Positions 7,862-19,330 of a DNA stretch of 41,528 nucleotides are shown in pieces. The first letter of the stretch is position 1. Each line of letters begins with the position of its first letter. The notes under the pieces were generated by a model that saw only the letters and a list, made by a program, of their open reading frames with translations, had not been told where the DNA came from and ran no database searches. This DNA comes from Escherichia phage HK633, in the sequence record NC_019719.1. One strand, 5' to 3'. The translations under genes were made by a program, and so were the position numbers.

Positions 7862-8148
7862 AGTTTCTGATGTCGCTTGCGCTCCGGATGGGGCGCACGC
7901 TCTCAGAGCTTCGGCAGAATATGACGGCAAGCGAGCTTCTGATGTGGATTGAGTACGACAGGCAAAGCCCGGTTGGCGATATTCGCGGTGATATCCATGC
8001 AGCGCAGATTGTCTCTGCCATCTACGGCTCGCAGGGGGCAAAAGTACCGCTGGACGATGCGATCCTGCGCTGGGGTGGTGATGAGCAATCAGAACCGAAG
8101 GACCCGTTTGCAGGGCTTGAGGCGGCACTTACAGCTGCGACACAATAA
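7810..8148 (+). CDS. Tail assembly chaperone T-frame segment (expected G-T fusion via programmed -1 frameshift)
   Basis: -1 frame relative to G is open from 7810; G-rich/A-run GGGAAAAG at 7836-7843 and C5 run at 7850-7854 lie in the overlap; conserved G/GT arrangement in long-tailed phages. Confidence 0.6.
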   Translation, partial: PDQQCGRSAGKVSTPGVKFLMSLALRMGRTLSELRQNMTASELLMWIEYDRQSPVGDIRGDIHAAQIVSAIYGSQGAKVPLDDAILRWGGDEQSEPKDPFAGLEAALTAATQ

Positions 8149-8205
8149 TTGCTTCACATGCCTTCAATGTAGCGATACGCTCTTTCCTTAAGTAAAGGAG
8201 GCGTT

Positions 8206-8394
8206 ATGGAACCACTGGTAGTAGTGTTTGGAATATTCGGCTGGCTGATAAATCTAATTGTGATTTTTTATTTATTACGGTTTAGCACAAGGGCAAATGA
8301 ACAAGTTGAAGCCCTTAAAGAGATAAATAAAAAGCAAGATGCGCAAATAGATTTATTAATACAAGTCGCTCACCAAAGAAAAGACAGTTTATAA
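8206..8394 (+). CDS. Small inner-membrane protein, YebO / HK97 gp15-like moron
   Basis: 62 aa; AAGGAGG RBS 4 nt before ATG; N-terminal TM helix then R-x-S-x-RAN-x-QVE motif; own terminator follows; sits between G/T and tape measure as HK97 gp15 does. Confidence 0.75.
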   Translation: MEPLVVVFGIFGWLINLIVIFYLLRFSTRANEQVEALKEINKKQDAQIDLLIQVAHQRKDSL

Positions 8395-8400
8395 CTCACG

Positions 8401-8425
8401 ACCCGCTATCAAGCGGGTTTTTTTT
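8401..8425 (+). terminator. Intrinsic terminator (ACCCGCT-ATCA-AGCGGGT + T8)
   Basis: Perfect 7-bp stem, 4-nt loop, 8 T residues; ends at tape-measure start. Confidence 0.8.
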
Positions 8426-8437
8426 ATGGGTGAAAAT

Positions 8438-12801: not shown

Positions 12802-13512
12802 ATGCGTCAGAAAACCATCGATGCGATTATGGCGCATGCTGCAGCTGAATATCCTCGTGAGTGTTGTGGCGTGGTGGCGCAAAAGAGCCGGGTAGAGAAA
12901 TATTTTCCATGTAGTAACCTCGCTACCGAGCCGACAGAACATTTTCACCTGTCTCCAGAAGACTATGCAGCTGCTGAGGACTGGGGTACGGTGATCGCCA
13001 TCGTTCACAGTCACCCTGACGCCACAACGCAGCCGAGCGAACTGGATAAAGCGCAATGCGACGCAACGCTTTTACCCTGGCATATTGTGAGCTGGCCGGA
13101 GGGGGATTTACGCACCATCCAGCCGCGCGGAGAACTGCCACTGCTGGAGCGTCCGTTTGTGCTTGGACACTTCGACTGCTGGGGGCTGGTAATGAGCTAT
13201 TTCCGGCAAACGCATGGTATCGAGCTCCACGATTACCGGGTGGATTATCCCTGGTGGGAAAACGCCTATCCGGACAATTTTTATCAGGATTGCTGGTATG
13301 AATGCGGATTCAGGGAGTTTGACGGCCCGCCTCAGGAAGGGGACCTCGTCATCATGCAGGTGCAGGCCGATAAGTGGAATCATGCCGGGATTTTACTGGA
13401 GGGTAACATGCTGCTGCACCACCTGTACGGACATCTGAGCCAGCGCGTGCCGTATGGGGGCTACTGGCAGGAAAGGACGATGAAGATTCTTAGACATCAG
13501 AATTTTATTTAA
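12802..13512 (+). CDS. K: Tail tip assembly protein K (JAB/MPN + NlpC/P60)
   Basis: GGAG RBS; HSHPD JAMM-type motif in N-terminal half, Cys/His-containing C-terminal half. Confidence 0.85.
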   Translation: MRQKTIDAIMAHAAAEYPRECCGVVAQKSRVEKYFPCSNLATEPTEHFHLSPEDYAAAEDWGTVIAIVHSHPDATTQPSELDKAQCDATLLPWHIVSWPEGDLRTIQPRGELPLLERPFVLGHFDCWGLVMSYFRQTHGIELHDYRVDYPWWENAYPDNFYQDCWYECGFREFDGPPQEGDLVIMQVQADKWNHAGILLEGNMLLHHLYGHLSQRVPYGGYWQERTMKILRHQNFI

Positions 13513-13559
13513 CAAACTGTCACTGATACTATCGTGTAGCACACAGCAAGGAGAACGAT

Positions 13560-13784
13560 ATGTATACAGTTGGGTTTGGTTGGATCTTCGTCGGTATTTT
13601 TATTGGGTTAATTCTCTGGTTTTTCATCAACCGCGCCAGCGTCAGAGCGAACAGGCAGGTTGAATTACTTGAGTCTATCGACCAGAAATTATCAAAAATA
13701 GTAGATCCAAACTTCGAGGCAAATAACAAAGACCAGTCGAAAGAAAACTACCTTGAAGAAGCAAGGAAAAAAGCTGGGCTTTGA
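13560..13784 (+). CDS. Second YebO / gp15-like small membrane protein (paralogous moron)
   Basis: 74 aa; AAGGAGA RBS; N-terminal TM helix (GLILWFFINRAS) and RAN-x-QVE motif shared with ORF 8206-8394; GATACT -10-like hexamer at 13525-13530; own terminator. Confidence 0.7.
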   Translation: MYTVGFGWIFVGIFIGLILWFFINRASVRANRQVELLESIDQKLSKIVDPNFEANNKDQSKENYLEEARKKAGL

Positions 13785-13800
13785 GAGCGTAAATTAACAA

Positions 13801-13822
13801 ACCACCTACGGGTGGTTTTTTT
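13801..13822 (+). terminator. Intrinsic terminator (ACCACC-TACG-GGTGGT + T7)
   Basis: Perfect 6-bp stem, tetraloop, T7 read from sequence. Confidence 0.8.
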
Positions 13823-13833
13823 ATGGGGGCAGC

Positions 13834-14442
13834 ATGCAAGAGGTAATGACAAGAATTGAGCTAAGTGGCGTGCTAGCTAAGACATATGGAAGGGTTCATC
13901 ACCGTCTGGTTCTCACTACTGCTGAAGCCATTAATGCACTCGCGAAAACCATCAATGGATTCGAGAAATTCTTAAACACAAGCAAAGCCCGAGGGCTGAC
14001 GTATGCCGTTTATAGAGATAAAAAGAATATTGGCGTTGATGATCTCGGCTTTCCCGTCACCGGCGAAGTGATCCGGATTGTCCCTGTAGTAATAGGGAGT
14101 AAAAAGGCTGGTCTTTTGCAGACGATCTTGGGGGCCGTGCTTATTACTGCTGCTGTGTTGACTGGCCCCGGCGGTATTGGCGCTGCTTTCGCTGCTGGTG
14201 GATTGACGGGGTTTGCTGCTGCCACTGGTGCCTCGTTGGTCCTCGGTGGGGTTATTCAGCTTCTTTCACCACAGCCATCAGGCATAGCCAGCAAACAAAG
14301 CGCAGATAACCGTGCATCGTATGCATTCGGCGGTGTTACAAACACCGCGGCACAGGGGTACCCGGTGCCTCTGCTTTATGGTAAGCGTCGAATCGGCGGA
14401 GCGATTATTTCTGCCGGAATTTATGTCGAAGATCAGCAGTAG
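13834..14442 (+). CDS. I: Tail assembly protein I
   Basis: 202 aa; N-terminal ubiquitin-like region and Gly/Ala-rich hydrophobic C-terminal half; between K and J. Confidence 0.8.
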   Translation: MQEVMTRIELSGVLAKTYGRVHHRLVLTTAEAINALAKTINGFEKFLNTSKARGLTYAVYRDKKNIGVDDLGFPVTGEVIRIVPVVIGSKKAGLLQTILGAVLITAAVLTGPGGIGAAFAAGGLTGFAAATGASLVLGGVIQLLSPQPSGIASKQSADNRASYAFGGVTNTAAQGYPVPLLYGKRRIGGAIISAGIYVEDQQ

Positions 14443-14460
14443 ATAACAAACCTTTTTACA

Positions 14461-14484
14461 AGCCACCTCCGGGGGGCTTTTTTT
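14461..14484 (+). terminator. Terminator-like hairpin (GC-rich stem with bulge + T7) before J
   Basis: AGCCACCTCCGGGGGGCT followed by TTTTTTT. Confidence 0.5.
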
Positions 14485-14495
14485 ATGGACGCAAT

Positions 14496-19096: not shown

Positions 19097-19330
19097 ATGA
19101 AAAGGCTAATTATCTGCATAGCGGGCGCTTTAATGCTGTCTGGTTGTGCTGGTGTACTTGAGAAACAGAAACCGATTTGCAGCGGCACGGCATATATGGG
19201 TGGCCATGAGAATACCGTTATGATTTACGCCGTTCGAAAGCAAAACAACCAGACGCAATACCGGGCCGGATATCCCTTTAACTGGCGCTGGGTAAGTGCG
19301 AACACATTCACAAGCACGACATGTAAATAA
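19097..19330 (+). CDS. Small lipoprotein moron (candidate Cor-type exclusion lipoprotein)
   Basis: 77 aa; signal peptide with lipobox LSGC; AT-rich upstream region 18990-19096; own terminator. Cor assignment is positional only. Confidence 0.65.
   Translation: MKRLIICIAGALMLSGCAGVLEKQKPICSGTAYMGGHENTVMIYAVRKQNNQTQYRAGYPFNWRWVSANTFTSTTCK

Follow-up and report, generated by a model that had tools for sequence, protein, structure and literature searches.

Tail genes K and I overlap in lambda, with nothing in between, and in Escherichia phage HK633 they are separated by a 321-bp spacer (13513-13833) that holds a complete small gene cassette. What is this gene, how is it related to the gp15-like gene found elsewhere in the tail operon, and what might its product do? 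The original prediction, made from the sequence of the window (the whole 41,528-nucleotide stretch of HK633 DNA, record NC_019719.1), read it as a second exclusion-type moron and a paralog of gp15. We find that the gene is gene 20, a moron already catalogued in HK022/HK97-type phages and not a new one; its identity and the anatomy of its cassette, taken alone, we regard as close to certain. The full statement, that the gene 20 product (gp20) would be a prophage-made inner-membrane blocker of DNA entry with a specificity unlike that of gp15, we consider evenly balanced.

The gene 20 cassette at the K-I junction

The features to which the text refers are the following.

12802-13512, + strand: tail gene K, the upstream flank (Pfam JAB and NlpC/P60 domains; annotated as Gp19 in HK97)
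13491-13797, + strand: exchangeable cargo segment, made up of the final ~7 codons of K together with gene 20 and its promoter-like region (from homology breaks and GC content)
13524-13532, + strand: extended -10 promoter-like element TGaTACTAT (from conservation of TGnTAnnnT among diverged cassettes)
13525-13530, + strand: GATACT hexamer, read from the sequence and overlapped by the extended -10 element
13548-13554, + strand: ribosome-binding site (RBS) AAGGAGA, read from the sequence, 5 nt before the ATG
13560-13784, + strand: gene 20 ORF, 74 aa, YebO-family protein with a single predicted membrane pass (ORF list, Pfam, PHROG)
13799-13825, + strand: intrinsic terminator with an 8-bp stem, TACG loop and T7 tract, ending 8 nt before the start of gene I
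13834-14442, + strand: tail gene I, the downstream flank (Pfam Lambda_tail_I)
8206-8394, + strand: gp15 homologue, 62 aa, the second YebO-family moron of the window, at the junction of chaperone gene T with tape-measure gene H
8400-8427, + strand: intrinsic terminator of the gp15 cassette (folding, -13.0 kcal/mol, z = -3.7)

The original description of the locus, a 74-aa ORF in a cassette between K and I with an AAGGAGA RBS of its own and a terminator behind it, holds in every coordinate. The terminator is a AAACCACC-TACG-GGTGGTTT hairpin at 13799-13818 followed by seven T residues, with a folding energy of -14.9 kcal/mol (z = -2.8), and the element carries a terminator annotation in HK97, HK75, and other phages. 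The -10-like hexamer GATACT that the prediction had pointed out is also present, but the extended -10 element overlapping it is the better supported of the two.

The first 25 kb of HK633 are about 98% identical to HK75, HK106, mEpX1, and HK97 (coverage 76-85%), and the tail regions of HK633 and HK97 share the same coordinates. In comparisons with HK140, mEp390, and LMessi, homology breaks off at 13488-13490 and restarts at 13797-13800, and these three phages carry other small genes at the K-I junction (phrog_914, a phrog_890 lipoprotein, and phrog_2320). Together with the overlap of K and I in lambda, these breaks and alternative cargoes identify the junction as a cargo hot spot at which a unit of approximately 13491-13797 is exchanged. 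GC content is 0.395-0.40 in 13500-13799 versus 0.53-0.56 in K and 0.51-0.57 in the distal part of I. A moron in the sense of Juhala and Hendrix is an add-on cassette that is dispensable for phage growth and has its own expression signals, as described in PMC3594210; gene 20 matches this usage in being DNA inserted between otherwise adjacent genes, in its deviant GC content, and in having its own terminator, predicted in silico.

The gene 20 ORF is identical in DNA sequence to gene 20 of HK022 (AAF30371.1), annotated as 'moron gene product', and across the whole cassette a single base, located in the spacer ahead of the terminator, distinguishes HK633 from HK022. Copies with 99% identity or more are present in 26 phage records that represent 12 distinct phages (HK022, HK97, HK75, HK106, HK446, HK542, HK544, mEp234, mEp235, mEp506, mEpX1, and ECP1), in which the gene is usually labelled 'similar to HK022 gp20' (for example, HK75_18 and HK544_018). 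HK022 gene 20, HK75_18, and HK544_018 share with the HK633 gene their ORF DNA, K-I position, RBS, and terminator, with no difference of substance. As an object, then, the cassette is nothing new and has been in GenBank since the HK022 and HK97 genomes were deposited.

One carrier departs from this uniformity. In HK97, a single C-to-T change turns Gln33 (CAG) into an amber codon (TAG, HK97 position 13656), which explains why the HK97 annotation has no CDS at the site and why its gene numbers skip 20. Since HK97 tolerates the amber codon, gene 20 is dispensable for the phage. With gene 20 knocked out in the reference HK97 genome, no conclusion about gp20 can be drawn from the published gp15 work on HK97, and HK633, HK75, or HK106 is the right background in which to ask if exclusion becomes wider or different when another YebO-like protein is present.

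gp20 as a YebO-family protein and its possible role in exclusion

gp20 matches the Pfam YebO family (PF13974) with 47.7 bits (E = 1.8e-12), and the gp15 homologue encoded at 8206-8394 does so with 38.7 bits, against a gathering cut-off of 27; both also match phrog_5031 (138.9 bits and E = 6.9e-41 for gp20, 4e-29 for the gp15 homologue), and the RefSeq name for the E. coli prophage copies is 'YebO family protein'. None of the PADLOC defence models matched gp20, gp15, or their relatives. Near its N-terminus the protein has a predicted membrane helix (about residues 5-23; mean Kyte-Doolittle hydropathy 2.36); NRASVRANRQVELLESI follows, and a variable linker leads from there to a C-terminal YLEEARKKAGL. 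Directly after the helix stands the YebO-family motif N-R-A-S-x-R-x-N-x-Q-x-E-L-L, in gp20 as NRASVRANRQVELLE, and residues R25, S27, R29, N31, Q33, and L37 do not vary in alignments to which E. coli K-12 YebO was added. The N-terminal helix and the R-x-S-x-RAN-x-QVE-x-L motif had been seen at the outset to be common to the two HK633 ORFs, and the pairwise alignment bears this out well beyond chance (BLASTP, 43% identity over 44 aa, E = 5e-9, confined to the helix and juxtamembrane region); judged from the alignments, the motif is the signature of the YebO family. Conservation in gp20 is highest in the columns where the protein is predicted to leave the membrane on the cytoplasmic side and in those at its very C-terminal end. 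Because the four N-terminal residues are uncharged and three arginines fall within nine residues past the helix, the positive-inside rule predicts an N-out protein with a cytoplasmic tail of about 50 residues. In an AlphaFold model from a 30-sequence alignment (mean pLDDT 69), a long helix at 3-48 is joined through a low-confidence linker to a shorter one at 53-71.

How close is gp20 to the one phage member of the family that has been characterised? The gp15 homologue in HK633 matches HK75 gp15 at 100% identity and HK97 gp15, whose annotation reads 'moron product', at 98.4%. HK97 gp15 (Cumby et al., 2012, via PMC3594210) belongs to the same Pfam and PHROG families and, like gp20, is a small single-pass membrane protein that has the motif and is encoded by a moron with its own terminator in the tail operon. 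However, its slot is the T-H junction rather than the K-I junction, its promoter is a candidate TTCACA-17 nt-TACGCT, read by eye, rather than an extended -10 element, and its tail, KQDAQIDLLIQVAH, is without the YLEEARKKAGL end of gp20. gp20 and gp15 are strongly unlike each other in the tail and in the outer part of the helix, and the gp20 tail DQKLSKIVDPNFEANNKDQSKENYLEEARKKAGL does not align with the gp15 tail KKQDAQIDLLIQVAHQRKDSL. The chromosomal YebO of E. coli K-12 (b1825, 95 aa, beside mgrB), which like gp20 passes the Pfam YebO cut-off, is nearer in the core: residues 15-43 of gp20 are 73% identical over 30 aa (E = 1e-13) to a YebO core of IGLILWFFINRAS-R-N-Q-ELLE, versus 38% identity between gp15 and YebO. 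Unlike gp20, K-12 YebO has a longer N-terminus, an unrelated and longer acidic tail, and a chromosomal locus rather than a prophage one, and blastn of the cassette against E. coli genomes returned prophage copies only, with no DNA-level similarity to yebO.

In PMC3594210, HK97 gp15 is described as a prophage-expressed inner-membrane protein that keeps HK97 and HK75 from injecting their genomes while leaving the receptor unblocked, and its C-terminal region, where the sequence departs from that of YebO, is proposed as the seat of the new function; overexpression or deletion of YebO is reported there to leave HK97 unaffected. Injection by HK97 depends on PtsG, in the inner membrane, and on FkpA, a chaperone of the periplasm (PMC5099701). 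Several other prophage-expressed small envelope proteins stop superinfection at or before DNA entry (TP-J34 Ltp, Tuc2009 Sie2009, P22 SieA, and Cor of HK022, N15, and phi80), none of them related in sequence to gp20, and both Ltp and gp15 can be overcome when the tape-measure region is altered (PMC10883804). Two of these are further unlike gp20: Cor acts at the outer membrane, on the receptor FhuA, and Ltp belongs to Gram-positive hosts and is a lipoprotein. HK633 also has a Cor-like gene, at 19097-19330. The importance of gp20 is modest and lies in its kinship to gp15, since few inner-membrane proteins that block injection by siphophages of Gram-negative hosts have been characterised.

The genomic context of YebO-like genes adds to this comparison. 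All 77 YebO-like loci that we found outside the phage-record collection (68 in IMG/VR, 5 in species-representative genomes, and 4 in assemblies, from searches seeded with phage-type sequences) lie on the tail-gene strand and inside a siphovirus tail cluster. They use three slots. The T-H junction holds the gp15 clade, a Klebsiella type, and two gp20-type loci; the position directly after H holds the gp20 type in five IMG/VR and two assembly loci, as well as nine loci with a longer protein of 153-154 aa that has a YebO N-terminus; and the third slot is the K-I junction, so that the gp20 type is found in all three. Genes from different slots are interleaved in our neighbour-joining tree, which implies that the gp20-type cassette has switched slots more than once, although cassettes also spread by recombination in the flanking genes and the independent insertions are for this reason few. 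The gp20 type is rare in species-representative genomes, where a contig scan gave 5 YebO-like loci. In HK633, gene 20 is not immediately upstream of the tape-measure gene, unlike gp15, its slot being the K-I junction. We also considered whether gp20 is tied to one type of tape measure and rejected this: it occurs alike with the HK97 type (TMP_3, HK97_TLTM, and lambda-C domains) and the HK022 type (lambda-C only), as in HK022 and mEp235, which carry gp20 and have tape-measure proteins without the TMP_3 and HK97_TLTM domains. The restriction of family members to tape-measure and tail-tip junctions, with the gp20 type moving together with its own promoter-like element and terminator, suggests a link to tail function.

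These observations, namely the homology to gp15, the anatomy of the cassette, and the linkage to tail clusters, argue for an exclusion function of gp20 by analogy, and we put its probability at or slightly short of an even chance; the label 'exclusion-type' given to gp20 in the original prediction would hold by homology only. The searchable literature contains no experiment on gp20 and no mention of its function or of its relationship to gp15. Counting against exclusion, gp20 is without the distinctive C-terminal segment of gp15, and its homology to gp15 is limited to the membrane helix and juxtamembrane motif; the tolerance of HK97 for the loss of gene 20 and the absence of a PADLOC match count on the same side. 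Since YebO is closer to gp20 in the core and yet is reported not to affect HK97, the shared core alone does not confer exclusion. If gp20 does exclude, it would be expressed from the repressed prophage, as gp15 is, and would insert in the inner membrane with 4 residues outside, one helix, and about 50 cytoplasmic residues, where it could block the entry of a superinfecting siphophage genome at the membrane or at the channel-forming step. It would do so independently of gp15 and with a specificity of its own, set by the outer helix half and the entire tail, the parts in which it departs from gp15. A broader and more tentative reading, which we think rather less probable than exclusion by gp20 itself, is that YebO-family morons are slot-hopping injection blockers linked to tape-measure and tail-tip genes, with gp20 as a second specificity class that would act from the cytoplasmic side on the channel-forming step. 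Were gp20 a blocker with its own specificity, double carriers such as HK633 would exclude two different sets of siphophages.

The main rival to exclusion, to which we give perhaps one chance in five, is that gp20 acts as a prophage-expressed mimic of YebO that binds YebO's partner at the cytoplasmic face of the inner membrane and so alters the membrane physiology of the host, a case of lysogenic conversion and not of exclusion. The much greater identity of gp20 than of gp15 to YebO in the core is what such mimicry would lead one to expect, as is the fact that the most conserved columns are those of the juxtamembrane cytoplasmic motif held in common with chromosomal YebO; moreover, with about 4 residues predicted outside the membrane, gp20 would offer little to meet an incoming tail in the periplasm. 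However, YebO has no established function, such that no pathway can be named for the mimic to enter, and mimicry does not predict that every phage-borne member should sit beside tape-measure or tail-tip genes. The sole characterised phage member, gp15, is an exclusion protein, and exclusion is the function that we continue to prefer for gp20.

Selection on gene 20 and conservation of its expression signals

Is gene 20 maintained for any function at all? It could be a functionless passenger in coliphages that rides on a recombination block shared with the end of K and the beginning of I, a possibility that we consider unlikely, more so than mimicry of YebO. The 225-bp ORF has one segregating site among 13 coliphage copies and a nucleotide diversity (pi) of 0.0007; the corresponding values for the tail genes are 0.060 (K), 0.084 (L), 0.118 (M), and 0.015 (I). 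The low-diversity block in these 13 phages runs from ~13444 to ~14100, past gene 20 on both sides and into the 5' half of I, and since it exceeds the gene, the near-zero diversity of the ORF reflects a recent horizontal spread of the block and not selection. The one segregating site is, moreover, the nonsense mutation of HK97, and the cassette is rare, being present in 7 of 5426 complete E. coli genomes (the gp15 cassette is in 6), both of which would suit a passenger.

Deeper comparisons tell against it. Relative to a close homologue (locus L038), gene 20 has 21 synonymous and 8 non-synonymous differences, for a dN/dS of 0.06; other close pairs with gene 20 give 0.05-0.08, and diverged homologues in Enterobacter, Serratia, and Pantoea prophages give 0.05-0.2. 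The gp20-type protein is thus under strong purifying selection across the wider subfamily, and among the coliphages themselves 12 of the 13 copies are intact.

The expression signals have been kept as well. No site ahead of gene 20 was recovered by a strict sigma-70 -35/-10 scan, and the putative promoter of the gene is a consensus-like element only. However, 21 of 24 distinct gp20-type cassettes have TGnTAnnnT at 34-42 nt before the start codon, in upstream DNA that has otherwise diverged and looks unalignable by inspection, and the element is present in 24 of 43 distinct YebO-like cassettes versus 2.15 expected from shuffles. From the position of this element, the gene 20 transcript is predicted to start near 13539-13540. 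Diverged homologues of gene 20 keep an AAGGAG- or GGAG-type RBS, and their cassettes retain a hairpin and T-run terminator that differs in sequence; in cassettes of the Serratia type, a second small gene precedes the next tail gene. The conservation of RBS, promoter-like element, and terminator across all three insertion slots speaks against a passenger. Rfam gave no match at the gathering threshold in the whole window and sub-threshold noise only in 13400-13900, and we propose no RNA element; the eLife paper on HK022 lysogens contains no expression data for gene 20.

In lambdoid late operons, the antiterminated late transcript passes terminators, and during lytic growth it would presumably read through the gene 20 terminator in the same way.

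Co-occurrence with gp15 and the origin of gene 20

The original prediction held that two exclusion-type morons in one tail operon would be unusual. This is not what we find in coliphages: gp15 occurs in 7 distinct sequenced coliphages of our collection, and all seven also carry the gene 20 cassette. Both genes are intact in HK633, HK75, HK446, HK544, HK106, mEp234, and mEpX1, and HK97 combines gp15 with the amber gene 20.

It had further been suggested that the two proteins may act together. A membrane hetero-oligomer or some other exclusion system of two parts would account for the presence of both genes in one operon and for the phages in which both are intact, and the similar helices and juxtamembrane motifs of the two proteins could conceivably pair. 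However, five phages have gene 20 and no gp15 (HK022, mEp235, HK542, mEp506, and ECP1), and among IMG/VR contigs with both junctions visible, 5 (plus HK97) have both types intact, 9 have the gp15 type only, with no YebO-like gene at the K-I junction, and about 19 have the gp20 type only. The existence of gp15-only and gp20-only loci means that the two are not an obligate pair. The two genes are also separate transcription units 5 kb apart, and in HK97 exclusion is reported to be mediated by gp15 (PMC3594210) although gene 20 is broken. Joint action thus fares poorly against independent assortment, and we consider a two-part system very improbable; independent action of gp20 remains the reading that we prefer.

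The word 'paralog' also needs qualification, since gp20 and gp15 do belong to the same YebO family but do not derive from a duplication. That gp20 is a recent duplicate of gp15 within the phage lineage that later diverged could be imagined from the presence of both in one genome, one family, and one operon, but we reject this origin and give it almost no weight: the DNA of the two cassettes shares nothing beyond chance 7-9-mers, the gp20 core is nearer to chromosomal YebO (73%) than to gp15 (43%), HK022 carries gene 20 without gp15, and in the neighbour-joining tree gp20 falls in a separate clade whose members occupy the K-I, H-M, and T-H slots in other genera. In this tree, which is a rough one, the gp15 clade groups with the Klebsiella-phage type, and the gp20 clade comprises proteins of 74-86 aa from Enterobacter, Serratia, Pantoea, and Escherichia prophages with the common C-terminus YLEEARKKAGL.

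One Klebsiella-phage protein (L004:5929-6162) links the two clades, having a gp15-like middle and a gp20-like C-terminus, and it suggests that gp15 has lost an end of the YLEEARKKAGL type. If gp20 does have an exclusion specificity of its own, gp15, gp20, and this 'bridge' protein would form a ready-made system for mapping specificity determinants. Also of use are the caveat that gene 20 is amber-broken in HK97, the extended -10 footprint, and the census of tail junctions.

Spread of the gene 20 cassette

The stretch of about 650 bp surrounding gene 20, whose product gp20 is a 74-aa YebO-family membrane protein (window 13560-13784, plus strand), is almost without variation across 13 phages from Hong Kong, Mexico, and elsewhere, and the portions of K, L, and M that adjoin it diverge by 6-12% among the same phages.

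Window about 13444-14100: near-invariant block, comprising the 3' end of K, the 5' half of I, and, between them, the gene 20 cassette

This is a mosaic block of recent spread. An Enterobacter sichuanensis prophage (strain WCHECL1597, L092:7001-7222; L numbers denote loci fetched for comparison) encodes a gp20 protein 100% identical to that of the window, also at the junction of tail genes K and I, and the K-to-I DNA of the two is 94.9% identical, which shows that the spread has crossed genera.

The K-I junction itself is a hot spot for cargo. It holds phrog_914 proteins in HK140, LMessi, and one Serratia prophage, a phrog_890 lipoprotein in mEp390, and, besides its phrog_914 protein, a phrog_2320 protein in LMessi; in the Serratia prophage, a YebO-like gene precedes the phrog_914 gene within this one slot.

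L010:1243-1584: cargo at the K-I junction
L011:1207-1653: cargo at the K-I junction
L012:1245-1934: cargo at the K-I junction
L006:5278-5610: cargo at the K-I junction

An amber codon in HK97

In the HK97 reference genome, codon 33 of gene 20 is changed from CAG to TAG (window 13656, equivalent to position 13656 of HK97 AF069529; L001:6144), and for this reason no gene 20 is annotated in that phage. A supE suppressor would insert glutamine at this codon and so restore the wild-type protein. Functional gp20 was therefore absent from the published experiments on HK97 gp15, the exclusion protein, in non-suppressing hosts.

Other YebO-like proteins

YebO-like proteins are also found beside the tape-measure gene.

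L004:5929-6162 (Klebsiella phage P7641): 77-aa YebO-like protein, encoded immediately 5' of the tape-measure gene
L058-L066, about 7962-8432 in each locus (nine IMG/VR contigs): 153-154-aa proteins, just 3' of the tape-measure gene

The 77-aa protein, which recurs in L056 and in about 20 records of Klebsiella phages, has a gp15-like middle (KQSAQIDLLIALAH) and a gp20-like C-terminus (YLEEARKKAGL), features that make it a bridge from the gp15 clade to the gp20 clade. The longer proteins fuse a YebO-like N-terminus (Pfam YebO, 1.8e-13) to an additional C-terminal region of ~90 residues. A weak gp15-like match in Klebsiella phage VLCpiS11a (Guernseyvirinae; L005:4989-5243; tblastn E = 6e-3, 31% identity) falls on the other strand from the tail genes, between genes for an annotated 'minor tail protein' and a tail assembly chaperone, and may represent either a distant family member in reverse orientation or a match by chance.

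Other small-gene sites in the window

Morons 22 and 23 sit between I and J in HK97 and HK022; in the window this gap (14443-14495) contains a terminator hairpin (AGCCACCTCCGGGGGGCTTTTTTT) and nothing else, so the I-J slot is empty. At 19097-19330, where HK022, HK75, and others have the Cor exclusion protein, the window encodes a 77-aa lipoprotein (MKRLIICIAGALMLSGC...); its tail region therefore holds three small exclusion-type genes, gp15 (8206-8394, plus strand), gp20 (exclusion-type by homology), and cor.
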